Source: an uncultured Alphaproteobacteria bacterium
GTDB taxonomy: Bacteria > Pseudomonadota > Alphaproteobacteria > RF32 > CAG-239
Assembly: GCA_910585375.1 (NCBI GenBank)
Contig: CAJUCZ010000036.1
Coordinates: forward strand, 1-12,071
Length of the DNA stretch: 12,071 nucleotides
Direction of reading: 5' to 3'
Part shown: in pieces, positions 1 to 12,071 of the stretch
Layout: the number at the start of each line of letters is the position of its first letter
Position numbering within the stretch: the stretch's first letter is position 1
Notes under the pieces: generated by a model
What the model was told of the DNA's origin: nothing
Database searches by the model: none
What the model saw: only the letters and a program-made list of their open reading frames with translations
Made by a program: the position numbers and the translations under genes

Positions 1-1
1 T

Positions 2-673
2 ACGTCTTTAACGTCTTCATCCTACGGCACGAACGGTACCGACGGCTGCGAGTATACCTGTTATTACACCTGCAACCCTAACTGCCCGTCTGGCACATCA
101 ACATCAAACCCCGGAGGCTGCGGCGGGTCGACCAAAAATGGGTGCGGGGATAAAACCTGTTATTACCCATATGTCAGCTGTTGTTCGGAAACCTGTCCGT
201 CTTCTCATCCGTACAGCAATTGCGATTACGGTTATACCAGCATCACCGAAAATGAGTGCGGGACTAAAAAGTGTTATGCCTGCCGACCAGAACCGGGACC
301 TATTGTAAAAACATATTGCTCAGGAAATATGATGTATGAGGATTATAACTATGGAGGAAGCTTTATTGGTGTGATTGTAAATAACCGTATTATACGTAAA
401 GACATTGTGTATAATCGTCGTTCTAATTGTGTATCAAGCTGTACAAGCAGTGTTAAAGCTAACCTAAATTGGAGAATCCCGTCTTCTAATGAAGTGTTGG
501 AATTGCGTTGTGCCATTACAGCAATGGGGGGGCCAATTGACGATACTTACTGGTACGATGGAAATTCTGTTGACGGCGTATGGCTGTTTGGGGATCAGCG
601 AGATAATAATCCTGATAAATATGATATGTATAATGACAACAGCAATTATTGTACCTGTGTATCGGATTTGTAA
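2..673 (+). CDS. Cys-rich protein, 5'-truncated by the window edge, with a C-terminal DUF1566/Lcl-like (C-type-lectin-related) domain
   Basis: Frame 2 has no stop codon from nt 2 to the TAA at 671-673, so the ATG at 329 in the ORF track is internal. The N-terminal part has repeated [G/E]-C-x3-4-[T/K]-C-Y-[Y/A] modules (DGCEYTCYYTC, NGCGDKTCYY, NECGTKKCYAC). The C-terminal part has NWRIPSSNEVLEL and a YW..(n)..VW.F..(n)..K..(n)..C.CV pattern that resembles DUF1566. A strong hairpin terminator follows. Confidence 0.6.
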   Translation, partial: TSLTSSSYGTNGTDGCEYTCYYTCNPNCPSGTSTSNPGGCGGSTKNGCGDKTCYYPYVSCCSETCPSSHPYSNCDYGYTSITENECGTKKCYACRPEPGPIVKTYCSGNMMYEDYNYGGSFIGVIVNNRIIRKDIVYNRRSNCVSSCTSSVKANLNWRIPSSNEVLELRCAITAMGGPIDDTYWYDGNSVDGVWLFGDQRDNNPDKYDMYNDNSNYCTCVSDL

Positions 674-711
674 AAAAGAACCCCGCCTTTGTGACGGGGT
701 TATGTTTTTTT
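672..711. terminator. Bidirectional rho-independent terminator between the convergent DUF1566-like gene and pyrG
   Basis: Stem AACCCCG (679-685) pairs with CGGGGTT (695-701) around a 9-nt loop. An A-run (672-677) lies upstream and a T-run (705-711) downstream, so the hairpin has a U-tract on either strand. Confidence 0.8.
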
Positions 712-712
712 A

Positions 713-2371
713 TTAAATCAACCGGCTTTTGTCAATAGCCGCTTTTACGAACGACACAAACAGCGGTGCCGGCGCAAAAGGTTTGGATTTTAATTCCGGA
801 TGGAACTGTACGCCGATAAACCACGGGTGGTTCGGAATTTCGACAATCTCAGGGAGTTTGCCGTCCGGAGATTTGCCTGAGATAATCATTCCGGCCTGAT
901 TCAGCTGGTTTTCATATTTCATATTGACTTCATAACGGTGACGGTGGCGTTCCGAAATCTTAGCAGCTCCATAGACTTTGCTGACCAGACTATCCGGAGC
1001 CAAAACGCATTCATAAGCGCCCAACCGCATGGTTCCGCCCAAGTCTCCGTCTTTATGGCGGATTTGTTTGGCTCCGTCTTTATCCCATTTGGTCATCAGG
1101 CCGACAACGGCTTCGCAATCTTGTCCGAATTCGGTCGTACCGGCATTGGTTACGCCGCAGACGTTGCGCATAGTTTCAATAACAGCCATTTGCATACCGA
1201 AGCAAATTCCCAAAAACGGAATTTTATTTTCACGGGCGTAACGAATAGCTTTGATTTTGCCGTCCGTACCGCGGCAGCCGAAGCCGCCAGGAACCAATAT
1301 GCCGCTGACATCGCCGAGTTGTTCGGCAACATCTTCATTTTCCAGAGCTTCCGAATCAATCCATTTGATTTTGACCTTATGTTTATTGGCAATGCCGCCG
1401 TGCGTCAGGGCTTCGCCCAAAGATTTGTAGGTATCGAGCATCTGGGTATATTTGCCGACTACCGCAATATTGACTTCCCCTTCGGGATGAGTAATCGTTT
1501 CGACGATATGTTCCCATTTGCTCAAATCCGCCGGTTTGCTGTCTATGCCGAAGTATTTGCAGACCTGAGCGTCCATGCCTTCATGAGAATAAGCCAGAGG
1601 AACGGCATAAATACTTTTGGCATCAAGCGCGGCAATGACGTTTTCTTCTTTAATGTTACAGAACATGGCGATTTTGCGTTTTTCGTTCTGCGGGATTTCT
1701 ATCTGCGAGCGGCAGAGCAGCATATCAGGCTGAATTCCGTATTCCTGCAATTGTTTGACCGAGTGCTGGGTCGGTTTGGTTTTCAGTTCGCCGGAAGCAT
1801 TAATAAACGGCAGCAGCGTGACATGGATAAACATGACGCGGTCGCGCCCCAAATCATAAGAAGTCTGGCGGATGGCTTCCAGAAACGGCTGACCTTCAAT
1901 ATCACCGACCGTACCGCCGATTTCGCACAACACAAAATCTTCATCATGAATGTCTGATTTGATAAATTCTTTAATCTCATTTGTCACATGCGGAATAACC
2001 TGAATTGTGGCGCCGAGGTAATCGCCGTGACGTTCTTTGTCCAAAACGCGCTGATAAATTTTGCCGGAAGTGACGCTGTCGGTTTTGTGGCAGGATATGC
2101 CGGCAAAGCGTTCATAATGCCCTAAGTCCAGATCGGTTTCGGCACCGTCGTCGGTTACAAAAACTTCACCGTGCTGATAGGGGCTCATTGTTCCGGGGTC
2201 TACGTTCAGATAAGGATCAAGCTTGCGCATTCTGACTTTAAAGCCACGCGCCTGCAGCGTTGCCGCCAGAGAAGCTGAGGCCAGACCTTTTCCCAGAGAG
2301 GAAACCACGCCGCCGGTAATGAAGATAAATTTTGTTTTCGGATTTAAATTTGCTTGGGTGTTATCAGACAT
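713..2371 (-). CDS. pyrG: CTP synthase (glutamine-hydrolysing)
   Basis: 552 aa. The N-terminus [16 protein letters not shown] and the motifs [15 protein letters not shown] and [22 protein letters not shown] mark the synthase domain. The C-terminal GATase domain has GICFGMQ and the [12 protein letters not shown] motifs. The SD-like AAGGAAG lies upstream of the ATG at 2369-2371. Confidence 0.97.
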
Positions 2372-2418
2372 TTTTCTTCCTTATTTGAACATATTAACTT
2401 GTGCTTTTTAAAGTGACA

Positions 2419-2443
2419 AAGGCGCTGTCGGAACAAGCGCCTT
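2419..2443 (-). terminator. Intergenic hairpin between secG and pyrG (possible weak terminator or attenuator)
   Basis: 8-bp stem AAGGCGCT (2419-2426) pairs with AGCGCCTT (2436-2443) around a 9-nt loop. On the transcribed minus strand the trailing U-tract is interrupted (TTGTCACTTT), so termination is probably partial. Confidence 0.4.
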
Positions 2444-2464
2444 ATTTTTATTGTCTTTTTTCAT

Positions 2465-2797
2465 TTATTTACCTGCTGCAGGAACTTCAGGAGCCTTATC
2501 AGCCTCTGTTGCCTGTACAGGAACAGTCTGCTCTATCGAATCGATCAGCGACTTTTTAGGCGCGCTGTGCCCTTTATAATAAAGAGACAGAGAAATACTG
2601 GTGATAATGAAAATTGTTGCAAGAATTGCGGTCAGACGGGTCAGAAAGTTTCCGGTTCCGCGGGCGCTTAAAAAGCTGCTGGCGCCGGAACCGCCGCCAA
2701 GGCCGTCCAAAGCACCGCCTTCAGAACGTTGCAATAAGATGATGGCAACCAGAAAGATTGCGACCAACAAGTGAATTACGAGTAAAATTGTTCCCAT
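2465..2797 (-). CDS. secG: Preprotein translocase subunit SecG
   Basis: The sequence MGTILLVIHLLVAIFLVAIILLQRSEGGALDGLGGG...FLTRLTAILATIFIITSISLSLY shows the typical two-TM SecG with its LLQ..kG.G..G signature. I prefer the start at the ATG at 2795-2797 (110 aa). It is preceded by GGAAAGGAAG and lies 16 nt after the tpiA stop. The ORF-track start at 2857 would overlap tpiA by 44 nt. Confidence 0.9.
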   Translation of the reverse strand: MGTILLVIHLLVAIFLVAIILLQRSEGGALDGLGGGSGASSFLSARGTGNFLTRLTAILATIFIITSISLSLYYKGHSAPKKSLIDSIEQTVPVQATEADKAPEVPAAGK

Positions 2798-2813
2798 GTT
2801 TCTTCCTTTCCGA

Positions 2814-3578
2814 TTAGCAGCAGCCGGCGTTTTTGGCAATAGAGATAAAATCTTCAACCTTCAGGCTGGCACCGCCGATGAGCGCGCCGTCGACATCGGG
2901 CAAAGACAGAAATTCTTTGGCATTGGCGGGTTTGACCGAACCGCCGTACAAAATGCGCATTTTATTGGCATTGCCTTTGCCGAGCTTTTTAGCCAAAACT
3001 TTGCGTACGGCAGCATGAACTTCCTCAACATCCTGCGCCGTCGGGGTTTTGCCCGTTCCGATAGCCCAGACAGGTTCATAAGCGATGACGGTATTGGAGG
3101 CATCGGCATTGTCGGGAACGGAACCCAGAATCTGAGAAGAGCAAACGTCAATGGTTTTGCCCGAATCGCGTTGTTCCAAGGTTTCGCCGATGCAGATAAC
3201 GGCTTTCAGTCCGGCTTCATAAGCGGCAACGGCTTTTTTGTTAATCAGTTCGTTGCTTTCATTATGGTCGGCACGTCTCTCGGAATGGCCGAGAATCACA
3301 TATTGGCAGCCGGCGTCTTTGAGCATGGCCGGGCTGACATCGCCGGTATGCGCACCCTTAACGTTGAAATGGGCGTCTTGCGCACCGAGAGCAACCTTGG
3401 CGCCGCGCAGGGCTTTTTTAACGGTTGTCAGCAGCGTAAACGGCGGACACACCAGAAATTCGCAGGAGGGTTTGCTCATTTTTTTTACTTCGGCGGCAAT
3501 TCCTTTTGCCAATTCAGTACCTTCGGCCAGCAGGCAGTTCATTTTCCAGTTGCCGGCAATCATTTTTTTTCTTGCCAT
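2814..3578 (-). CDS. tpiA: Triosephosphate isomerase
   Basis: 254 aa. Canonical TIM motifs are present: IAGNWKMN, VILGHSERR, ICIGE, AYEPVWAIGTG and YGGSV. Confidence 0.96.
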   Translation of the reverse strand: MARKKMIAGNWKMNCLLAEGTELAKGIAAEVKKMSKPSCEFLVCPPFTLLTTVKKALRGAKVALGAQDAHFNVKGAHTGDVSPAMLKDAGCQYVILGHSERRADHNESNELINKKAVAAYEAGLKAVICIGETLEQRDSGKTIDVCSSQILGSVPDNADASNTVIAYEPVWAIGTGKTPTAQDVEEVHAAVRKVLAKKLGKGNANKMRILYGGSVKPANAKEFLSLPDVDGALIGGASLKVEDFISIAKNAGCC

Positions 3579-3690
3579 AATTTGTTTTCCTCTTCAAATT
3601 TTATTAAAAATTTTCAATTTGCTTTCCTTTTAGCACAGCAAATTATATTTTTCCAGTAGAAAAAACTTTTCAACACTAATATTTATACGA

Positions 3691-3720
3691 TTGCATATAT
3701 TATTAAAATTGCATTATAAT
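3691..3720 (+). promoter_or_regulatory. Candidate sigma70-type promoter for the ppiD-like gene, within the AT-rich divergent tpiA/ppiD intergenic region
   Basis: TTGCAT (3691-3696), an 18-nt spacer, then TATAAT (3715-3720), about 40 nt upstream of the ATG at 3760. This is a pattern match only. Confidence 0.35.
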
Positions 3721-3759
3721 TGCGCCAGCTTAATTAATATATAAATAAGGTCAGAAAAA

Positions 3760-5640
3760 ATGATTGGAAAAATTAGAAGTATTCAGGACTCTTGGGTGAT
3801 GAAGCTGATTTTGATTCTTACGGCCCTGAGTTTTATGTCCCTCTTCGGCGTCTCCGGCTATTATGCCACGGCGGCCAACAACAAGCCGGTGATTAAGGTA
3901 GACGATATTGAGATTACCCAAAGCCAGATTATGAACGAACTGAACAGCGAACTCCAAAAAGCCAAGTCTTTGTTCGGCGAGAATCTGGACGTCAATGAAA
4001 ATATCCGCAACGCCTTGTTGCAGGGGATTATCCAAAAAGAGCTTTCCAATGCCATTTTGCAAAAAACGGCTCAGGACAACAATGTTTATATCAGTGACGA
4101 GCTGATTAAGAAGATTATTTCTTCCCAGCCTGAGTTTATGGACGAGAACGGCAAATTCAGCGTTCAGCGGATGCGCCGGATTTTGGCCTCGGTCGGTATG
4201 AGCGAGCAGGAATATATTCAGTCACTGCGCCGTGATATTGAGAAAATCCACCTTGTTTACAATATGGTGGACGGCGTTACCGTACCCGAATTTATGGCTG
4301 ATTATCAATATAAGCTTGATAATCAGAAAAAAGTTTTCAAATTTATCAATATTGATCCGGAACAGATGAAAATTGACCGCAAAATTTCGCAAGACGAGAT
4401 TGAGCAGTATTACAACGATTTTGCCGCCCAATTCATTGAACCGGAGAATCGGGATGTTTCTTTCATCAGCATTTCCAGTGCCGATGCCGCCGGAAAGGTT
4501 TTGATTTCCGATGAAGACATCAAAGCCTATTATAACGAAAACATCAAACAGTTTGAAGTTCCGGAAAGCAGAAACATTCTGCAAATGGTCTTTTCAAACA
4601 AAGATGACGCAGAAAAAGCTTATGCCCAATTGAAAAACGGCGCGGATTTTTATGCTGTTGCCAAGAAAGAGGCTAATCAGGACAAAGCCGCCACGGAGCT
4701 TGGTTTTGTGGAAAAAGACATGCTTATCGGCAATATGGGCGATGTGATGTTCAGCCTGAAGAAAGGCGAGATTTCCGAACCGGAAGAATCCGAATACGGC
4801 TGGCATATCATGAAAGTGGCTGACATCCGCCCGATGCAGAAGACATCTTGGGAAAAAGCCAAGGCTAAAATTGTTGAGGTTTTGCGCCGCGAGCAGTCTG
4901 ATGAAGCTGCCGGCGACCTGATTGCAAAAATTGAAGACGAAGCCGGTGCAGGAAAATCTTTGGCCGAAATAGCAAAAGGCCTGAACGTACCACTTTTGAA
5001 AGTTGAAGGGCTGCAGGAAGACGGTAAAGCCAAGACGATGCCAAAGAGTTTTGAAAAGCTTGTGGCTTCACCTGATTTTATTGATGCGGCATTTTCTTAT
5101 AATCAGGATGAAACCAGTCAGGCGGTTGAGACTGATGACGGTTTTGTCTTTGTTAATGTTGACAAGATTACGGAACCGCACCAGAAAGCCATGGACGAGG
5201 TTGTGCCGGAGATTGAAAAGATTTGGGCCGGCAATGAAAAGAACGCCATTGCACAGGAAGTTGTCAACGATGTACTTCATGACGTGGAAAACGGTGATAA
5301 GATTGAAGACGTAGCCAGACGTTTCGGACTGAAGCTTCAGACGACGGCTCCGTTAAAAAAATCTGACACATTTGACGGTTTCTCCGCCCTGCAAATGCAG
5401 GAACTGTTCAGAGAGAACATCGGAACGCCGAAAGTCATCGGCGATGACATGCGTCAGGTGATTGTGGTACCGGTAAAAGTTATTAACAGTTCGGACAAGC
5501 TGACAGAAAGCGAGAAAAAAGACATTTTGCGCAAGGCACAATTTGAGACCTCGCAGGAAATGGCTCAACAGCTGATTAATGATTACGGTTCAAACTACCG
5601 GATTAAGATTAAATATAAGGCCGTTGGCATTATAGACTAA
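3760..5640 (+). CDS. ppiD: PpiD-like periplasmic chaperone / parvulin-type peptidyl-prolyl isomerase (SurA-N domain, N-terminal membrane anchor)
   Basis: 626 aa. The N-terminus has the IQDSWVMKLILILTALSFMSLFGVSGY anchor, followed by a long helical chaperone region. A central parvulin/rotamase-like segment is present (NILQMVF...GADFYAVAKK...LGFVEKDML...GEISEPEESEYGWHIMKV). Its position divergent from tpiA matches the usual alphaproteobacterial arrangement. Confidence 0.85.
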   Translation: MIGKIRSIQDSWVMKLILILTALSFMSLFGVSGYYATAANNKPVIKVDDIEITQSQIMNELNSELQKAKSLFGENLDVNENIRNALLQGIIQKELSNAILQKTAQDNNVYISDELIKKIISSQPEFMDENGKFSVQRMRRILASVGMSEQEYIQSLRRDIEKIHLVYNMVDGVTVPEFMADYQYKLDNQKKVFKFINIDPEQMKIDRKISQDEIEQYYNDFAAQFIEPENRDVSFISISSADAAGKVLISDEDIKAYYNENIKQFEVPESRNILQMVFSNKDDAEKAYAQLKNGADFYAVAKKEANQDKAATELGFVEKDMLIGNMGDVMFSLKKGEISEPEESEYGWHIMKVADIRPMQKTSWEKAKAKIVEVLRREQSDEAAGDLIAKIEDEAGAGKSLAEIAKGLNVPLLKVEGLQEDGKAKTMPKSFEKLVASPDFIDAAFSYNQDETSQAVETDDGFVFVNVDKITEPHQKAMDEVVPEIEKIWAGNEKNAIAQEVVNDVLHDVENGDKIEDVARRFGLKLQTTAPLKKSDTFDGFSALQMQELFRENIGTPKVIGDDMRQVIVVPVKVINSSDKLTESEKKDILRKAQFETSQEMAQQLINDYGSNYRIKIKYKAVGIID

Positions 5641-5648
5641 CCTTGGAT

Positions 5649-5680
5649 AAAGCCCTGCCCCGAGCGGGGCTTTATTTTTT
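5649..5680 (+). terminator. Rho-independent terminator of ppiD
   Basis: GCCCC (5657-5661), GAGC loop, GGGGC (5666-5670); an alternative pairing is AAAGCCC/GGGCTTT. Followed by TTTATTTTTT. Confidence 0.8.
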
Positions 5681-5737
5681 GTAAAAAACGCTTGCCAAAT
5701 AAAATTATTTGGTTATGGTATTGGTGTTTGGTTGAAT

Positions 5738-5814
5738 CGGGGTATGGCTCAGCCTGGTAGAGCGCTTGCTTTGGGAGCAAGATGTCGTGGGTTCGAATCC
5801 CGCTGCCCCGACCA
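5738..5814 (+). tRNA. tRNA-Pro (anticodon UGG), CCA-encoded
   Basis: Acceptor stem CGGGGTA (5738-5744) pairs with TGCCCCG (5804-5810), followed by discriminator A and CCA (5812-5814). The D-arm is GCTCAGCCTGGTAGAGC. The anticodon arm is CTTGC-TTTGGGA-GCAAG, giving anticodon TGG. The T-arm is GTGGGTTCGAATCCCGC. Confidence 0.93.
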
Positions 5815-5821
5815 ATAAAAA

Positions 5822-5846
5822 GGGTGCATGAAGTGCACCCTTTTTT
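5822..5846 (+). terminator. Rho-independent terminator after tRNA-Pro
   Basis: GGGTGCA (5822-5828), loop TGAAG, TGCACCC (5834-5840), then TTTTTT (5841-5846). Confidence 0.8.
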
Positions 5847-6119
5847 GTGGTTTCGGAAAGCCGATGACCGGTAAGGCCGGCAGCGTTCAATTTACTCAGT
5901 GCCGCGGAAAAATCCGACGTTTATATAATCTTTTTTTTAGTTCATTTCAGAAAGCTGTTCAGCAGCCGGTTGTTTTTTATTGCTTGTTTTATTTATTCGT
6001 TATATCTTATTTTATCTTTATTCAGAAAGGGCATGATTTTGCAGGGGTATAATTTAAGCCGCAATAAGAGTTTACGGCTTCCGAAGATTATAGAGAACGA
6101 AGCTGGTGTTCTTAATACC

Positions 6120-6635
6120 ATGGACGATTTGTTTGCAACACGTCAGGCATCGGCTCTGGCAGCAGACAAGAAATTTCCGAAAAAGATTGTTGACAGAGAA
6201 GAAAACGATTATGACGCCGAGTTGGAGAGGGTTTTGAAACTGCCTGAAAGCGCAAGTGAGCTGGTTGTGATTACCAAGGCGAAAAAACTCGGCGCTTATA
6301 CGATTGCGATAACGGCCAAGTCGCCGGCAAAGTTTCGCGGCGTGTTTGTCAGCCGAATGCAGAATTTTTGTCTTGACGCCGTGCAAAATATGCTGAATGC
6401 CAATTTTATCCGCGCGGAAGACGAGAAAAGCAAAGAACAGCGGGAAAAGTTTCAGGCAGATGCAATTATCTGCTTGAAAATGCTGGCATATATTGCCATG
6501 GTGGCGGAGAACGCCGGTTGTATTTTGAAAAGACAATACAAACAAATTGCATTACAAGCCGGTGAAACAATAAATCTGGCTCTGGCCTGGAAAAAGAGCG
6601 ATGATGAAAAATGGAGGAATAAGAAAGAGATTTAA
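6120..6635 (+). CDS. avd: Avd-like accessory variability determinant (basic four-helix-bundle protein)
   Basis: It lies immediately upstream of the TR and RT, the canonical avd position. It is helical and basic, and its C-terminal pattern ...IALQAGETINLALAWKKSD... resembles the ...IAEVGRILGSWIARVN... C-terminus of Bordetella phage bAvd (recalled from memory). The start is uncertain: ATG 6120 gives 171 aa, ATG 6033 gives 200 aa, and the ORF-track start 5970 gives 221 aa. None has a strong SD. Confidence 0.7.
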   Translation: MDDLFATRQASALAADKKFPKKIVDREENDYDAELERVLKLPESASELVVITKAKKLGAYTIAITAKSPAKFRGVFVSRMQNFCLDAVQNMLNANFIRAEDEKSKEQREKFQADAIICLKMLAYIAMVAENAGCILKRQYKQIALQAGETINLALAWKKSDDEKWRNKKEI

Positions 6636-6676
6636 AACCGAAAGGTTTTGAATGAGGGAAGACTTGTAAATGCCTT

Positions 6677-6787
6677 ATTTGGTCGGCGTCCGCTAATAAT
6701 AACGGGAATGTTCGCACCGTGAATAATAACGGAAACAAGAACTATAATAACCCCAATAAACGAAAGGACGCCGTTCGGCCCGATTTG
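6677..6787 (+). repeat. DGR template repeat (TR)
   Basis: This 111-nt repeat matches 8318-8428 at a constant offset of +1641 with no indels. Read in the VR frame it gives IWSASANNNGNVRTVNNNGNKNYNNPNKRKDAVRPDL, with 12 AAY codons. It is non-coding here; the overlapping 6719-7039 ORF is a read-through artefact. Confidence 0.93.
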
Positions 6788-7047
6788 CTTTTGAAGGGAA
6801 ACATAAAAATTGCGTCAGGCAAAGCCGCAAGTTTCCGGAAAACAAGCCTGTTTACGGTTTTTATGCAAGAACCGTCCGTGCTGAAAGCAAAGGAAGTTTT
6901 CTCTTTTCCGGCCGCTGCGGGGGAATATACCATGCGGAGGAAGAAACAAAAACAGCAAATGTTTTATGAAATACCACATACGTTGACGCAGTTTTGTTTT
7001 AATGTATTATCGGGTATTTCTTTTTTTATCCGGAGATAAGACAACGC
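6788..7047 (+). ncRNA. TR-RT spacer, probably part of the DGR template RNA (Sp-like region)
   Basis: About 260 nt of non-coding sequence lie between the TR and the RT start. In the BPP-1 DGR the equivalent spacer belongs to the TR RNA and supplies the cDNA priming site. No structure was confidently identified by eye. Confidence 0.45.
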
Positions 7048-8115
7048 ATGAATCTGAGCAAAATATTTTCATTTGAAAATCTGTTGGAAGCCCACAAACT
7101 GTGCCGAAGGAGCAAACAACACAAGCGGGGCGCCATTATGTTTGAGATTGAACTCGGCCGCAACATTGCCAAACTGACAGAAGAGCTGGCTAATAAAAAA
7201 TACAAATTGGGGAAATACAGGCCATTTACCATCTTTGACCCTAAAAAGCGCCTGATTGAAGCCCTGCCTTATAAAGACAGGGTGGTTCTGATGTGTTTTT
7301 GCCGGTATGTGCTTGAACCGCGGCTGGACTGCCGGCTGATTTTTGATAATGCCGCATCAAGAAAAGGCAAAGGTCCGGAATTTGCCATTGAACGCCTTTG
7401 TTGCTTTATCCGCAAACTTTATTGTCAGAAACCTAATGAAGATATCTATTTTTTGAAATGCGACATAGCGAAATACTTTCAAAACATCAATCATACGATA
7501 TTGTTGGAAAAACTACGGCGATGCGGCTTTTCTGACGATGAGATGTGGTTTATGGAGCTGGTTATCCGCTCGCACGGCGAAACAGGCGTTCCGCTCGGAA
7601 ATCAGACAAGCCAGTGGTTTGCCCTGCTCTATCTGGATGAGATTGACCGTCTGATAAAAGAACAACTGCGCGCTCCGTTTTATATCCGTTACATGGACGA
7701 TTTTGTTTTGTTAAGCAGGGATAAGGCCTTTTTGCAGCGTTGCCGGAATGAAATCGGCCAGACCTGCCGTGAGAGTCTGAAATTACAGCTGAACAACAAA
7801 ACGCAAATCGGACGGCTGAAAGACGGACTGGATTTTCTTGGATATAATTTTAAGCTTACGGACACCGGAAAGATTCTTAAAAGCCTGCGCGCCTCGGCCC
7901 GCCGCCGGCAACGGCATTATATTAAGATGATTGCCCGTTATTATTTACAGGACGTGCTTGACGATGAGTATCTTAATGTCCGTTTTAATGCGTTTAAAGC
8001 ACATATGAAAGGGACTTCGGACTGGAAATTTGTACGTGACCGGCTAAACAGCCTGAAAAGGAAAAAACGACTGATGAAAAAAAACGAAGATAAAAAATCC
8101 TTGCCCGTTTGCTGA
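7048..8115 (+). CDS. DGR-class reverse transcriptase
   Basis: 355 aa. RT motif 4 is LGNQTSQ (7594-7614), the [I/L/V]GxxxSQ signature that separates DGR RTs from retron and group II RTs (QGxxxSP). The catalytic YMDD is at 7690-7701. No maturase/X, endonuclease or RNase H domain is evident. Small size and position next to the TR fit a DGR RT. Confidence 0.95.
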   Translation: MNLSKIFSFENLLEAHKLCRRSKQHKRGAIMFEIELGRNIAKLTEELANKKYKLGKYRPFTIFDPKKRLIEALPYKDRVVLMCFCRYVLEPRLDCRLIFDNAASRKGKGPEFAIERLCCFIRKLYCQKPNEDIYFLKCDIAKYFQNINHTILLEKLRRCGFSDDEMWFMELVIRSHGETGVPLGNQTSQWFALLYLDEIDRLIKEQLRAPFYIRYMDDFVLLSRDKAFLQRCRNEIGQTCRESLKLQLNNKTQIGRLKDGLDFLGYNFKLTDTGKILKSLRASARRRQRHYIKMIARYYLQDVLDDEYLNVRFNAFKAHMKGTSDWKFVRDRLNSLKRKKRLMKKNEDKKSLPVC

Positions 8116-8155
8116 AAGTGTAGTATTATTAGTGGTAACTAATGGAGGAACTCTA

Positions 8156-10129
8156 ATGAATACAACATTATTGACAGAAGATCAAATCTGGGGAGACCAA
8201 GCTCTGGATGTTATGAAAAAGTACGGACTCAAAACGGCATTGACCGATTTGGCAATAGTTTTGGGCGGTTTAATGAGTCGCACAAACACAACCTCCGAGG
8301 GTGAACGTTCCGGTTACATTTGGTCGGCGTCCGCTAATTCTTACGGGAGTGTTCGCACCGTGAGTACGTACGGAGACGAGAGCTCGTCTGACCCCTCTGA
8401 GCTTAAGGACGCCGTTCGGCCCGCTTTGTCTCCATCCGAAACATCTAAAATCCGTCCGAACGCAGTGAGGACGCTGAGATTGCCCGAAGGGCAATTGCTT
8501 GAAATTTGCGAATTCGGGGCCTATCCCCAAGATATTGTTTCGAAAAAAATTTCGAAAAATCTGGAAAATTCTTACCAAAAAAGAAGTCTTAAAACAACCG
8601 GAAATTCCTATACTTTCGACAATGCCGGCCTGACCGATTACTCTGCTCCTTTTCAACCTAAAACTTATCAGGAATACGAGGATTCGTCTTCCGGAAAAAG
8701 ATATGTCCGCGTTGAAGGCAAGCCCGCCGATAAGGATTCGATTCTTTCCGACGGGACGCTTGTTCAGAACGGAGAGGCTTATTGGCTGGAGGTCAAGCCG
8801 ATTGAATGGCTGAAAGATCCGAGTGGCGTCTGGGTGGCGAAAAAAGCCCTTTTCTCCGGTATACAATTTGATTCTAACAGCAACTATGACAGCAATTTCT
8901 CTCAAACTGACATGAAGCAGTATCTGGACCGCTATTTCTCAAAGGAAATGCAGGCATCCCGCGATTATTCCGCAAGCCGCAGCCGCAATGCCGACGTTTC
9001 CGAAGAAAAAAGCTTTACGCCCAAACCACCCTCGGCCAGGCAGAAGAAATACGGTATTCAGGTTGTGGACGAACCGATGACGGTTAAAGACCAGATTGAC
9101 TTTTATGTGCAGAACGGCATGTCTTTTATGCTGCACGGGCCTTCCGGCGTCGGAAAGACCGCAAGGGTGGAAGCCATTGATCCTGATCTGACTGCCGTAC
9201 CGTTATGGAACGGCGTTCTGCCTGAAGACGTGGTCGGAAAGGTTCGCTATCCGGACGGGAAAACAGGCCTGCCAGACGAGAACAAGTCCGGCGGGGAATG
9301 GATCGCACCGGATTGGTATGTGGAATTGTGCAAAAAATGCGAGTCGGAGCCGGATAAAAACCATGTTTTGTTTATTGACGAGGTCACTAATGCCCGCCCG
9401 ACAACGCAAAGTCTGATTTTTCATATTACGTTGAAAAAATCCATCAGTCCCAGTAAAGGCAAGCTGCCTTCCAACGCTGTGGTCGTATTGGCAGGAAACA
9501 GCAAAGAAGAATCCGGTGCGGCGTATAATATGCCGGAACCGTTATTCCGCCGGATGTGCGGGCATATTTATCTGGAAGCAAATGTGCCGGAATGGCTGGA
9601 ATGGGCCAGCGAAAAGAGTCGGAAGCACCCCGAAGATCCGGAACGTCTGAACATTCACCCGCTGGTGTCTTCTTTTGTCGGAACTTACGGGCGTCAGGTT
9701 TTCTATTCTTCTTATGATGAGGAAAACCCGCAGCAGTGGGCAATGGATCCGCGCGGATGGGAACAGGTTTCGGACATTATTTATGACAACAAAGGCATTA
9801 TCCGGCGCGAATTGCTGGAAAGCAAAATGGGTAAGGAACTGGCAGCCAATCTGCTGGCTTATGCAAAAAATCCGCCGCTTTCACTGGAAGAAGTAATTAA
9901 CGGCGAATACTCGGAACGTGACATTCCGTCCGGAAACGATGCCCGTTTGGCATTGACGCTCAGCCTTCGCCATGTGGACGACCGGCAGGTCGGAAAAGTC
10001 AGGGATTTTATTCGGGAAAATCTCGGGCGGGAAAACGAGGCCGTCTTTGATTCTTTCTGGATTGGCAAAGATGACGAGAGGGCTTTGCTGATTGCCCGTC
10101 AGAAACAATTTAGAAACGCAGGGAGGTAA
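8156..10129 (+). CDS. DGR target protein: N-terminal hypervariable ligand-binding-type domain fused to a MoxR/AAA_5-like AAA+ ATPase
   Basis: I prefer the start at ATG 8156, which has GGAGG at 8144-8148, 7 nt upstream; the ORF-track GTG at 8132 has no SD. The protein is 657 aa. The VR encodes residues 55-91. ATPase motifs are Walker A GPSGVGKT (9137-9160), Walker B VLFIDE (9365-9382), sensor-1-like VVLAGN, and PLFRRM in the position of the MoxR ALLDRF arginine. No signal peptide or TM segment is seen. Confidence 0.85.
   Translation: MNTTLLTEDQIWGDQALDVMKKYGLKTALTDLAIVLGGLMSRTNTTSEGERSGYIWSASANSYGSVRTVSTYGDESSSDPSELKDAVRPALSPSETSKIRPNAVRTLRLPEGQLLEICEFGAYPQDIVSKKISKNLENSYQKRSLKTTGNSYTFDNAGLTDYSAPFQPKTYQEYEDSSSGKRYVRVEGKPADKDSILSDGTLVQNGEAYWLEVKPIEWLKDPSGVWVAKKALFSGIQFDSNSNYDSNFSQTDMKQYLDRYFSKEMQASRDYSASRSRNADVSEEKSFTPKPPSARQKKYGIQVVDEPMTVKDQIDFYVQNGMSFMLHGPSGVGKTARVEAIDPDLTAVPLWNGVLPEDVVGKVRYPDGKTGLPDENKSGGEWIAPDWYVELCKKCESEPDKNHVLFIDEVTNARPTTQSLIFHITLKKSISPSKGKLPSNAVVVLAGNSKEESGAAYNMPEPLFRRMCGHIYLEANVPEWLEWASEKSRKHPEDPERLNIHPLVSSFVGTYGRQVFYSSYDEENPQQWAMDPRGWEQVSDIIYDNKGIIRRELLESKMGKELAANLLAYAKNPPLSLEEVINGEYSERDIPSGNDARLALTLSLRHVDDRQVGKVRDFIRENLGRENEAVFDSFWIGKDDERALLIARQKQFRNAGR
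8318..8428 (+). repeat. DGR variable repeat (VR) inside the target gene
   Basis: Cognate of TR 6677-6787. There are 23 mismatches in 111 nt, 20 of them at TR adenines (20 of the 38 TR adenines differ). It encodes IWSASANSYGSVRTVSTYGDESSSDPSELKDAVRPAL. The GC-rich 3' block AAGGACGCCGTTCGGCCCG (8405-8423) is identical to the TR and could serve as an IMH. Confidence 0.93.
8479..8495 (+). promoter_or_regulatory. Hairpin downstream of the VR (candidate DGR target-recognition hairpin/cruciform)
   Basis: ATTGCCC (8479-8485), GAA loop, GGGCAAT (8489-8495). It begins 51 nt after the end of the VR, inside the coding sequence. Confidence 0.4.
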
Positions 10130-10131
10130 GT

Positions 10132-10512
10132 ATGAACAATAAAAAAATGCTGTTTGAGCAGGTATTGGACAACAATCCCCGGCATCCGGTTATTTTGGCC
10201 GGAAATACGGAGCTTTCCCTGCCCTCCTGCGTATTCATGCCGGCGGATATTGCCGAACGGGAACTGTTTATTCCGTCTGACTGGAGCAAGGCGCTTGACT
10301 TCGAGGCACAAAGGGGAAAAGCTTATCTTTTGATTGAAGGGTTGGACAAGTTGGCACCGGCGCAGCAAAGAAAATTTTGTATGCTTTTGAAAAACCGGCG
10401 GGCGGGAAATTACAAGCTGCCCGACAATGTCAGCATTGTTATTCCGGTTGCCGACAAATCAGGCCTGTCTGCAGAGATACTATCTCTTTCATTGTTATGG
10501 GACGTTGAATAA
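10132..10512 (+). CDS. Small P-loop-less AAA-like protein (degenerate paralogue of the upstream ATPase core)
   Basis: 126 aa. GGGAGG (10121-10126) precedes the ATG at 10132, 2 nt after the upstream TAA. By eye, YLLIEGLDKLAPAQQRKFCMLLKNRRAGNYKLPDNVSIVIPVA aligns with VLFIDEVTNARPTTQSLIFHITLKKSISPSKGKLPSNAVVVLAGN of the ATPase. Where the P-loop would sit it has VILAGNTELSL, with no GxxGxGK[ST]. Confidence 0.6.
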   Translation: MNNKKMLFEQVLDNNPRHPVILAGNTELSLPSCVFMPADIAERELFIPSDWSKALDFEAQRGKAYLLIEGLDKLAPAQQRKFCMLLKNRRAGNYKLPDNVSIVIPVADKSGLSAEILSLSLLWDVE

Positions 10513-12071
10513 TGCATGCGGACAATAATGACATTGATTATATCAGGGAGCGGGTTCTGCGGAAATTTCCGCTGCTCGGCGTGACGATGTCTGCATTGAA
10601 CACAGTGGCCGATGACAATATCGGCACAGCAGCAACGGACGGGCACACCGTTTATTATTCTCCAAAGTTTTTCGCACCACTTTCCGATGATGAAAAAACT
10701 TTTATTTATGCGCATGAGGTTATGCATGTGGCTTTTAATCATATTCTGCGCAGCAAGGACAAAAAACAGCGTTTGTGGAATACGGCAACGGATGCCGTCA
10801 TCAACCAGATTCTCAAAAACGAAGAATTGCCGATGATTGACGGCGGCGTAGATATGGCCGAAGCTGTCAATAAATCTGCCGAAGAAATGTATGAAAGGCT
10901 TCTCAAAGAACAGGAAGAAAAAGAAAAAGAAAAAGATAAAGATAAAAATCAACAACAGCAAGATGAAAGCCATTCCGCACAACAGCCTGAGGACGGCAAA
11001 CAACAGCAAAATGCGCCTCGGCCTCAGGATGATAATCAGCCGGAGCCAAAACGTCCTCAAGAACAGGAAAATAATGACGGAGACGGAGAAGAAAGCGAAC
11101 AGGCCGGGCATGACAATCATAATATTTGGAAAAAAGCCGTAGAAAAGGCTGAAAAAGAAAAACAGCAGCAAGAAGATCAACAGAAAGGAAATTCTCCAAC
11201 ACAGAAGCAGGAGAAATCCGGACAAAGTCTTTTGGACAAGTTGAAAGACTTATTTAAAAAGCCGGAAAAGCCTGCTGATACAGATAAGTCAGAAAGCCAG
11301 ACACCACAGACAGGAAGCTCTGACGGCGCTGACAGTCCGCGTTCCAAAGACAATGAGAGTGTTTATGAAAAAAGGTTTGGCGAAGATAACCGTCAGGAAC
11401 GTAAAAAACAGGCAGAACAAATCCGCAAGGCTTTACAGCAACATAAAAATGAAATTATTAAAGCGCAATCCGAAGAATATTCTTTTGGCAACGTCGGAGA
11501 GGCCAAGGCTGTCACAGACTGGAAAAAACTTTTAAAAAAGACAATCGAAAAAGAAGAAGACCGATGGTCTTACCGTCGTTCCGGTGCCGACAACGATTAT
11601 ATGGCCCGTGTGGAAGAACTGGAAGAAGAGAATTTGTCGGAAACTGAAGTTATGCTGGATGTCAGCGGATCGGTTGACGAAGGTATGCTTAAAGAATTTT
11701 TACGGCAGCTCAAGCCTATTTTAAAGACTTCAAAACTTAAGGTCGGATGTTTTGATCACCGGATTTTTGGTTTTAAGGAGATTAAAAATAATCATGACAT
11801 TGACAATTTCAGTGTTCCGGGCGGCGGCGGAACGAATATTGATCAGGCCGTACGGGCGTTTTCCAAGAAAAAAGAAGTCAACAAGATTGTTTTTACGGAT
11901 GGTTATTCCCATGATATGCCGCGGCAGGATTTGAAAAATACGAATGTCATATGGCTTATTTATGACAACAAAAATTTTAATCCGGTTTGCGGAAAAGTGA
12001 TTTATGTCGATCGTGCCAAACTTGGCCAGAATTATATCAAAAATGCCTATTTTGCAAGAGGCGGCAGATAA
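10512..12071 (+). CDS. Putative Zn-metallopeptidase (HExxH, DUF2201_N-like) - acidic/Q-rich linker - VWA-like domain (DUF2201-like) protein
   Basis: 519 aa. The start overlaps the upstream stop (TAATG at 10510-14). The N-domain has GTAATDG...YYSP and HEVMH (10713-10727), followed by NTATDAVIN. The C-domain has the MIDAS-type DVSGS (11658-11672), GGGGTN and VFTDGY...VIWLIY. The stop TAA falls at the last bases of the window. Confidence 0.85.
   Translation: MHADNNDIDYIRERVLRKFPLLGVTMSALNTVADDNIGTAATDGHTVYYSPKFFAPLSDDEKTFIYAHEVMHVAFNHILRSKDKKQRLWNTATDAVINQILKNEELPMIDGGVDMAEAVNKSAEEMYERLLKEQEEKEKEKDKDKNQQQQDESHSAQQPEDGKQQQNAPRPQDDNQPEPKRPQEQENNDGDGEESEQAGHDNHNIWKKAVEKAEKEKQQQEDQQKGNSPTQKQEKSGQSLLDKLKDLFKKPEKPADTDKSESQTPQTGSSDGADSPRSKDNESVYEKRFGEDNRQERKKQAEQIRKALQQHKNEIIKAQSEEYSFGNVGEAKAVTDWKKLLKKTIEKEEDRWSYRRSGADNDYMARVEELEEENLSETEVMLDVSGSVDEGMLKEFLRQLKPILKTSKLKVGCFDHRIFGFKEIKNNHDIDNFSVPGGGGTNIDQAVRAFSKKKEVNKIVFTDGYSHDMPRQDLKNTNVIWLIYDNKNFNPVCGKVIYVDRAKLGQNYIKNAYFARGGR

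Follow-up and report, generated by a model that had tools for sequence, protein, structure and literature searches.

Introduction

Diversity-generating retroelements (DGRs) that mutate lectin-type sensor domains have been described in MoxR-vWA ternary conflict systems, and the idea of an 'antigen sensor' has been published as well (Kaur et al. 2020, PMC7159879; Dore et al. 2024, PMC10907252). In these vWA-MoxR-VMAP systems the DGR-hypermutated lectin-type domain belongs to a predicted cytoplasmic protein and is found together with a MoxR ATPase, a VWA domain and a peptidase, for which antigen sensing has been proposed. Here we analysed a stretch of 12,071 nucleotides from an uncultured alphaproteobacterium of the CAG-239 lineage (assembly GCA_910585375.1, contig CAJUCZ010000036.1, positions 1 to 12,071), which we call the window. 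It carries a DGR whose variable repeat (VR) lies in the N-terminal head domain of a 657-aa protein. The C-terminal half of this target is a AAA+ ATPase that we assign to the MoxR class, and the genes for a 126-aa protein and for a combined zincin-peptidase/VWA protein (DUF2201) follow directly.

While the window thus shares its basic composition with the VMAP ternary systems, its architecture differs. The ternary systems carry their variable C-lectin/FGS domain C-terminally, either on the vWA component or on a separate protein beside the ATPase, and its scaffold is of the FGE-sulfatase type; in the window the variable domain is N-terminal, fused to the ATPase and apparently DUF6273-like. The peptidase of the ternary systems is a trypsin or caspase on the VMAP protein, whereas the window encodes a zincin fused to the VWA protein. 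Finally, VMAP ternary systems are found above all in multicellular cyanobacteria, Chromatiales and actinobacteria, whereas the window cassette occurs in metagenome-assembled genomes (MAGs) of gut Alphaproteobacteria.

NTPase-lectin DGR targets, including STAND/NACHT-FGS fusions, have been discussed as analogues of adaptive receptors (PMC8195603, PMC10907252), and candidate phyla radiation (CPR) bacteria fuse CLec or unclassified VRs to AAA/midasin-like ATPases (PMC5758913; summarised in PMC10907252). Both groups, like the window protein, combine a P-loop NTPase and a DGR-diversified domain in one polypeptide. However, their NTPase lies upstream and their VR is C-terminal, which is the reverse of the order in the window, and unlike them the window ATPase is of the MoxR class and has a dedicated VWA-peptidase partner.

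Further relatives are found among gut phages. Tentaclins carry N-terminal VRs on DUF6273 domains (PMC10743442), and the DUF6273/C-lectin-like targets of gut phages (tentaclins/Mtd-like; PMC10743442, PMC11792537, bioRxiv 10.1101/2024.10.15.618418) share an apparently related VR scaffold, a related reverse transcriptase (RT) and the gut habitat with the window. But these targets are receptor-binding or decoration proteins of virions with Ig-like domains, whereas the window head sits on a predicted cytoplasmic ATPase. Group 2.2 jumbo phages encode a MoxR ATPase beside a protein with an N-terminal zincin (metallopeptidase) and a C-terminal VWA domain, as the window does, and this pair was proposed to act in virion assembly; no DGR, variable head or small intervening protein was described for it (Iyer et al. 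2021, PMC7824862). The solved MoxR-VWA complexes NorQ-NorD and CbbQ-CbbO provide the best structural matches to the window ATPase, at a sequence identity of 12–15%, and their partner has a VWA domain with a metal-ion-dependent adhesion site (MIDAS) as well. Yet they act as maturation or activase chaperones on a single fixed enzyme client and possess neither a peptidase nor a diversified domain.

An initial annotation of the window, made from the sequence alone, took DGR targets to be surface proteins with a C-terminal VR. This picture is out of date (PMC7159879, PMC8195603, PMC10907252, PMC5758913, PMC10743442). It also knew of no comparable system, which holds for the exact combination of parts but not for the parts themselves: DGR-MoxR-vWA sensors (PMC7159879) and MoxR/metallopeptidase-vWA pairs (PMC7824862) have both been published. 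In our literature search, the coverage of which was incomplete, we found no account of a DUF6273-like head placed N-terminally on a MoxR ATPase together with a small protein and a zincin-VWA protein. What we did not find described is this combination: a head fused to the ATPase, a zincin-VWA partner and no VMAP, in unicellular gut Alphaproteobacteria.

Results

The cassette is compact, lies on the plus strand and fills window positions 6033–12071 with the Avd-like gene, the template repeat (TR), the RT, the target gene, the gene for the 126-aa protein and the DUF2201 gene. The DGR core comprises:

6033–6635, plus strand: Avd-like DGR accessory gene, upstream of the TR (phrog_3206 'Avd protein of DGR', E 4e-13)
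6677–6787, plus strand: TR, with 38 adenines and 13 AAY codons
7048–8115, plus strand: DGR reverse transcriptase of 355 aa, between the repeats (RVT_1, E 1e-18; phrog_1423, E 3.5e-94)
8318–8428, plus strand: VR, encoding residues 55–91 of the 657-aa target

TR and VR form a direct repeat of 111 nt with 23 mismatches, 20 of which fall on TR adenines, mainly in AAY codons at codon positions 1 and 2. The three non-adenine mismatches (window 8368, 8386 and 8403, corresponding to TR 6727, 6745 and 6762) are changes of T to G in two cases and of G to T in one, and a mutated adenine adjoins each of them. With 20 variable codons, the VR has a theoretical repertoire of about 10^20.7 possible peptides, and TR codons 75, 82 and 84 are able to mutate to stop codons. 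Repeat search and translation reproduced the position of the VR and the target residues that the initial annotation had given.

The RT translation contains YMDD and LGNQTSQ, the latter fitting the [I/L]GxxxSQ motif typical of DGR RTs. Its closest phage counterparts are DGR RTs of gut phages, among them that of phage nd12 (36.7% identity, E 9e-65), which comes from the tentaclin study (PMC10743442). In the Avd-like protein, the C-terminal ~125 aa correspond to the four-helix-bundle part of Avd, and matches to NCBIfam NF033474 and Pfam PF22296 are weak. Its N-terminal extension of ~75 residues (window 6033–6254) matches no family, yet is kept across 14 loci. Conservation across 15 loci begins at residues 17–29 of the open reading frame (ORF) of 221 aa, which places the probable gene start near 6033. 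That is, the window contains a genuine and complete chromosomal DGR with Avd-like protein, TR and RT.

To compare related loci, we scanned one genome per species and obtained 75 loci, mostly from MAGs of gut Alphaproteobacteria and Clostridia. The order Avd-TR-RT-target-small protein-DUF2201 was kept in at least 14 other loci of alphaproteobacterial gut MAGs, counted at species level, and in one further alphaproteobacterial locus the RT was located 7 kb away. TR/VR pairs of the relatives measured 110–122 nt, occupied the same place in the target and differed almost exclusively at TR adenines. The syntenic locus L003, which is ~95% identical to the window, differed from it at 1 of 111 TR positions, versus 16 of 111 VR positions.

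We then compared VRs within three clusters of proteins at least 90% identical to each other. Among the full-length members listed every VR was distinct, with the identical pair P0154/P0160 in cluster 3 as the sole exception, while the flanks …W[ST]AS… and …RPALPPSE… were unchanged. The cluster member P0125 has the same VR as the window. Since VRs differ among proteins of at least 90% identity while their flanks stay constant, the sequence comparison indicates that the DGR is active in natural populations. An invariant VR across strains, which the initial annotation had named as evidence against its reading, was not what we found.

Many near-identical homologues were annotated as N-terminally truncated proteins of 549–592 aa, and their reading frame is broken within the VR (P0124, P0128, P0130, P0131, P0135–P0137, P0139, P0141–P0145, P0147, P0148, P0151 and P0159; P0147 is a fragment of 214 aa). 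The VR of L003 (10150–10290) has two 1-nt insertions compared to its own TR. Such frame-broken VRs could be real alleles in an off state produced by the DGR, or they could have arisen artificially when heterogeneous VRs were assembled.

The target ORF of 657 aa starts with an ATG at 8156, with a GGAGG 8 nt upstream, and is organised as follows:

8156–8959, plus strand: head domain, residues 1–268, compact alpha/beta (AF2 pLDDT 92.4, pTM 0.89)
8960–9022, plus strand: disordered linker, residues 269–289 (pLDDT below 50 in both AF2 models)
9023–10129, plus strand: AAA+ ATPase module, residues 290–657 (AF2, Foldseek; phrog_1297, E 5e-36)
9137–9160, plus strand: Walker A motif GPSGVGKT, from residue 328
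9365–9382, plus strand: Walker B motif VLFIDE, from residue 404
Residues 443 and 462: VVLAGN with sensor-1 N448, and PLFRRM with arginines 465–466

The ATPase motifs had already been read from the sequence in the initial annotation and were recovered at residues 328, 404, 443 and 462. Walker A, Walker B, sensor 1 and the RR motif were invariant in 38 homologues. Foldseek searches with the modelled ATPase module gave 355 PDB matches at E ≤ 1e-3, of which the best 50 were all P-loop/AAA+ ATPases. The top 18 were CbbQ2 and NorQ, with E values of 7e-9 to 9e-7; the foremost of them, CbbQ2 6l1q and NorQ 9qh4/9qh9, had E values of 7e-9 to 1e-7 and target-normalised template modelling scores of ~0.6; NorQ bound to the VWA domain of NorD was among the best structures, and NtrX, dynein and McrB came next. 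A profile match to the MoxR-like structure 2r44 reached E 6e-4. In Pfam, however, the AAA matches stayed below the gathering score: AAA_5 (E 3e-4) scored 19.7–21.1 bits versus the required 22 and AAA_3 16.5–18.5 versus 27, and AAA_16 was below its score too. Since the structure matches, phrog_1297 and the invariant motifs agree while Pfam falls just short, the modelled ATPase is justifiably called a divergent member of the MoxR class. Repeat search and Foldseek together thus bear out a VR in the N-terminal domain of a protein with a MoxR-class C-terminal half. The profile searches and structure predictions proposed at the outset had mixed results: both DUF2201 domains of the partner protein exceeded their Pfam thresholds while AAA_5 and AAA_3 did not, and the head was modelled with confidence but had no structural match, in contrast to the ATPase with its CbbQ/NorQ matches.

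The roughly 20 rewritable codons of the VR fall in loops and short strands of the head. No Foldseek match better than E 0.1 was obtained for the head model in PDB or BFVD, no Pfam match was found even at E ≤ 10, the head profile matched no PDB sequence, and 50,697 phage genomes yielded no match. A head-only profile retrieved 2470 cluster representatives out of 1.84 billion, in which the head is paired with ankyrin, MORN, DUF4116, LRR or AAA domains or stands alone. DUF6273 (PF19789) was matched by 4 of 54 multi-domain relatives detected at profile level (best E 2e-7), the window protein itself being unmatched. The VR-equivalent segment of P0181 aligns to DUF6273 positions 114–171 of 172, and VRs of phage DGRs lie at the C-terminal end of DUF6273 (PMC11792537, PMC10743442). 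In relatives with tandem copies, the DUF6273 match bridges the end of one head copy and the start of the next. The head is therefore apparently a remote, DUF6273-like (C-lectin-like) domain, circularly permuted and with an extra beta-rich insert, as judged from its relatives' sequences. That the RT is closest to gut-phage DGR RTs is consistent with such a head. Because of this remote homology we do not claim a new fold, and the view of the recognition head as an unknown module gives way to that of an apparent remote relative of a scaffold already known from gut-phage DGRs. Wu et al. describe 'Ig1/Ig2' classes whose VRs are N-terminal or internal, but these are viral tail-fibre clusters, and we rejected an assignment of the family to them for that reason.

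Stand-alone head proteins of 269–286 aa were also observed. P0177 (L080, 6001–6810) and P0185 (L083, 1171–2031) are encoded among pheST, rplT and recA; P0177 is identical on 8 contigs and apparently not diversified. Other short stand-alone head matches were fragments at contig ends.

Two genes follow the target:

10132–10512, plus strand: 126-aa protein of unassigned fold, between the ATPase and DUF2201 genes
10512–12071, plus strand: zincin-peptidase/linker/VWA protein of 519 aa (phrog_1314, E 4.6e-66)
Residues 13–186 of the latter: DUF2201_N (PF13203), E 6e-29, 101.9 bits versus a cut-off of 23.2
10713–10727, plus strand: HEVMH, from residue 68
Residues ~140–360: low-complexity linker rich in K, E, Q and D, variable among orthologues
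Residues 380–499: DUF2201 VWA domain (PF09967), E 3e-12, 47.1 bits versus a cut-off of 26.4
11658–11672, plus strand: MIDAS motif DVSGS, from residue 383

The TAA of the ATPase gene (10127–10129) is followed by an ATG at 10132 that is preceded by GGGAGG, and the next junction is a TAATG overlap at 10510–10514. Both junctions were recovered as the initial annotation had described them, and from their sequence the three genes are translationally coupled. In agreement with the absence of export signals noted there, the three proteins have no signal-like N-terminus and a maximal Kyte-Doolittle mean over 19 residues of 1.05–1.17, too low to indicate a transmembrane helix; the target, the 126-aa protein and the DUF2201 protein are thus predicted to be cytoplasmic. 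None of the three had a match in NCBIfam.

The reading of the third gene as an HEVMH metallopeptidase with a DxSxS MIDAS VWA domain was confirmed, with both motifs present and both Pfam domains above threshold. HExxH and the DxSxS MIDAS were kept in 24 of 24 DUF2201 orthologues. No TR-related repeat was found in the VWA protein. Residues 39–83 (window 10626–10760) show weak, HExxH-centred similarity to the minigluzincin MJ1213 (PDB 4qhf, E 0.08), which hints at a minigluzincin-like catalytic core.

Orthologues of the 126-aa protein, conserved in sequence as well, stand between the ATPase and DUF2201 genes in more than 25 loci of Alphaproteobacteria and Clostridia. The protein had no match in Pfam (E ≤ 10), NCBIfam, PHROG or PADLOC, and its PDB profile matches were noise. 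Aligned by hhalign to ATPase residues 380–453, it gave E 0.068 and a probability of 0.8, which is not significant; it may be a degenerate AAA+ fragment from Walker B to sensor 1 without a P-loop ('mini-AAA'), as this alignment weakly suggests.

Two candidate cis elements were found at the 3' end of the VR:

8405–8428, plus strand: GC-rich constant VR 3' end that matches the TR, putative initiation of mutagenic homing (IMH) site
8454–8472, plus strand: hairpin GTCC-GA-AC-GCA-GT-GA-GGAC, within the coding sequence and 25 nt 3' of the VR

At the VR end, 19 bases identical to the TR are followed by a difference at 8424 (A in the TR, C in the VR) that is fixed in 13 of 13 loci compared. The GC-rich end and the fixed A/C difference would fit an IMH/IMH* boundary, an IMH role being suggested by analogy. 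The hairpin was kept in all 16 RT-linked loci compared, versus 3 of 11 RT-less loci (L001, L009 and L041). Compensatory double changes occur at four of the six pairs of the hairpin, and 97% of cells are paired; the covariation score was reached by none of 500 shuffles, and slid registers did not come close either. The covarying bases alter encoded residues (N/S together with V/A), and therefore the constraint acts at the level of the nucleic acid. The DGR of phage BPP-1 uses a stem-loop for target recognition, and by analogy the hairpin at 8454–8472 is a putative homing or target-recognition signal.

The left part of the window contains housekeeping genes and the border of the cassette:

Left part of the window: pyrG, secG, tpiA and a gene for a PpiD-like isomerase
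5738–5814, plus strand: tRNA-Pro(UGG), left border of the cassette (ARAGORN; Rfam tRNA, 66 bits)
5817–5845: strong terminator-like hairpin with a 13-bp stem, just 3' of tRNA-Pro (terminator scan)

Across species, the cassette occupies different chromosomal places, often beside tRNA genes. In L003 it is bracketed by tRNA-Pro and tRNA-Arg (7461–7537 and 14042–14118), and the cassettes of L001, L004, L006 and L009 adjoin other tRNAs, namely Pro(GGG), Met and Leu, with no integrase seen. Downstream of the L003 cassette lie genes for an ABC transporter and for glycosyltransferases. The neighbourhood census with and without adjacent RT, which had been proposed beforehand, revealed presence/absence polymorphism of a 2.9-kb Avd-TR-RT module in otherwise syntenic loci (L005 versus L001, L008 versus L009). 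Targets without an RT keep a VR that is ~80% identical to the TR of a relative.

No integrase, phage structural or conjugation genes were found inside the 6-kb cassette or directly beside it in L003, and the family profile had one weak partial match among 2.9 million IMG/VR viral contigs. In the absence of neighbouring phage genes, and with viral collections containing next to no relatives, we rejected a prophage origin and conclude that the cassette is not on a phage. Distant 'MoxR ATPase' matches exist in myoviruses, and phrog_1297 and phrog_1314 represent phage homologues.

The N-terminal domain is exchangeable across the ATPase family, which can also carry, for example, ankyrin repeats or other heads there; in P0109, ankyrin repeats replace the head. 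Several Clostridia MAGs (L038, L046, L051–L053 and L060) have the ATPase and head-like domains in tandem or in multiple copies within one locus, some without a nearby DUF2201 gene. In L079, a related target (4925–6979) lies at the contig end behind ORFs of 122 aa and 63 aa with no room for an RT between them, and this may be another arrangement of the cassette.

At the left edge of the window, positions 1–673 (plus strand, frame 2, open at the edge) encode the C-terminal part of a Cys-rich protein that reads …NLNWRIPSSNEVLEL…YWYDGNS…NNPDKYDMYNDNSNYCTCVSDL. Its tail presumably resembles a DUF1566/C-lectin-type domain with an N/D/Y-rich end; this ORF contained no TR-related repeat and had no Pfam match at E ≤ 0.01. 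A counterpart of window 1–625 is missing from L003, though L003 is otherwise syntenic.

Discussion

We read the cassette as a variant of the DGR plus MoxR-vWA 'antigen sensor' conflict systems in which ATPase and sensor form one polypeptide and a zincin on the VWA protein serves as effector, a reading for which we judge the chances to be evenly balanced. Whether viewed as sensor, protease or programmable remodeller, the function would be as deduced from analogous systems. Adenine-specific mutagenic retrohoming rewrites ~20 codons of the N-terminal head, and the ATPase motifs as well as the peptidase and MIDAS sites are intact. The ATPase would form a hexameric ring and so present six copies of one hypervariable head, and, in the manner of NorQ-NorD and CbbQ-CbbO, the ring would engage its partner's VWA domain. 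The ligand bound by the heads would be cytoplasmic, most plausibly a phage protein or one from another invader, and its binding would lead to ATP-driven remodelling of the VWA-peptidase partner that switches on or directs proteolysis. The DGR would thereby supply a heritable set of specificities that can be drawn anew. We favour a role in conflict over service to a single endogenous client because VR variation is large in scale and strain-specific. Behaviour of the conflict type is also seen in the presence/absence polymorphism of Avd-TR-RT, in the changing genomic surroundings of the cassette and in the exchangeable N-terminal domains of the ATPase family, and the concept itself has published precedents (PMC7159879, PMC8195603, PMC10907252).

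Several points weigh against this assignment. Classical MoxR-VWA pairs are maturation chaperones and not immune systems. Ring assembly and contact between the ATPase and the VWA domain are predicted by extrapolation from NorQD and CbbQO. Housekeeping or cell-envelope genes surround the cassette rather than a defence island, and none of the three operon proteins matched a PADLOC defence model. The third component of the ternary systems, VMAP, was not found: the 126-aa protein had no Pfam match at E ≤ 10, the presence of VMAP models in the Pfam copy being unconfirmed.

A bolder version of the sensor reading is a DGR-programmed 'intracellular antibody-protease', in which the heads of the hexamer capture foreign cytoplasmic proteins for cleavage by the VWA-tethered zincin, or the zincin sets off proteolytic abortive infection. 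We consider this version unlikely. If true, unicellular gut bacteria would possess an immunity by protein recognition that is heritable, anticipatory and independent of nucleic-acid memory.

Maturation chaperones are the nearest structures to the window ATPase, and the cassette could accordingly encode a client-specific MoxR-VWA chaperone or maturation system (as NorQD, CbbQO, RavA-ViaA or a phage virion-assembly-like pair) in which the head recruits an endogenous client and the DGR only tunes this binding or lets it drift. Phage homologues of both proteins (phrog_1297 and phrog_1314, with the distant myovirus matches), the virion-assembly role proposed for the phage pair (PMC7824862), the housekeeping-like neighbourhoods and the non-variable stand-alone heads in housekeeping contexts all point in this direction. 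But a repertoire of ~10^20 that differs in nearly every sampled strain is hard to fit with one client, no candidate client gene is conserved beside the operon, and viral contigs contain almost no members of the family. On balance we regard a chaperone as unlikely.

The cassette might instead have come from a phage or genomic island as a mobile module, selfish or offensive in nature, its head tracking variable proteins of host or competitors in counter-defence or addiction. This would agree with an RT closest to gut-phage DGR RTs, a VR scaffold apparently related to phage DUF6273 targets, a tRNA-flanked cassette at different loci in different species and a DGR module that is gained and lost as a unit. 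However, neither the cassette nor the neighbourhood of the L003 cassette holds integrase, phage structural or conjugation genes, the 2.9 million viral contigs gave one weak match and the 50,697 phage genomes none to the head, and the locus remains syntenic over ~5% sequence divergence, which makes mobility of this kind quite improbable. That the element is a decaying relic whose VR variation is historical and which no longer mutates its target in this strain, as the 3 of 23 mismatches outside adenines, the frame-broken VRs of many assemblies and the complete loss of Avd-TR-RT in related species might suggest, is scarcely credible given that the window retains RT, Avd, TR, IMH-like end and hairpin in intact form and that the TR is conserved while VRs differ at ≥90% identity.

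Until now, comparative genomics has been the only source of proposals for DGR-diversified intracellular sensors, most of them in large multicellular cyanobacteria and purple sulfur bacteria that are hard to handle and have sprawling multi-gene loci. The cassette described here measures 6 kb, is self-contained, appears to lack membrane components, recurs in many gut species and shows abundant natural VR variation. It therefore offers a clonable test case for whether hypermutated lectin heads recognise invader proteins, and for how such recognition would be relayed to a MoxR motor and a protease. Apparently, the DUF6273 scaffold known from receptor-binding proteins of gut phages has cytoplasmic relatives fused to ATPases, and DGR-MoxR systems extend beyond multicellular bacteria. 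Finally, DGR homing signals such as the putative IMH and hairpin can, it seems, sit in the 5' coding region of a large gene and co-evolve with it.

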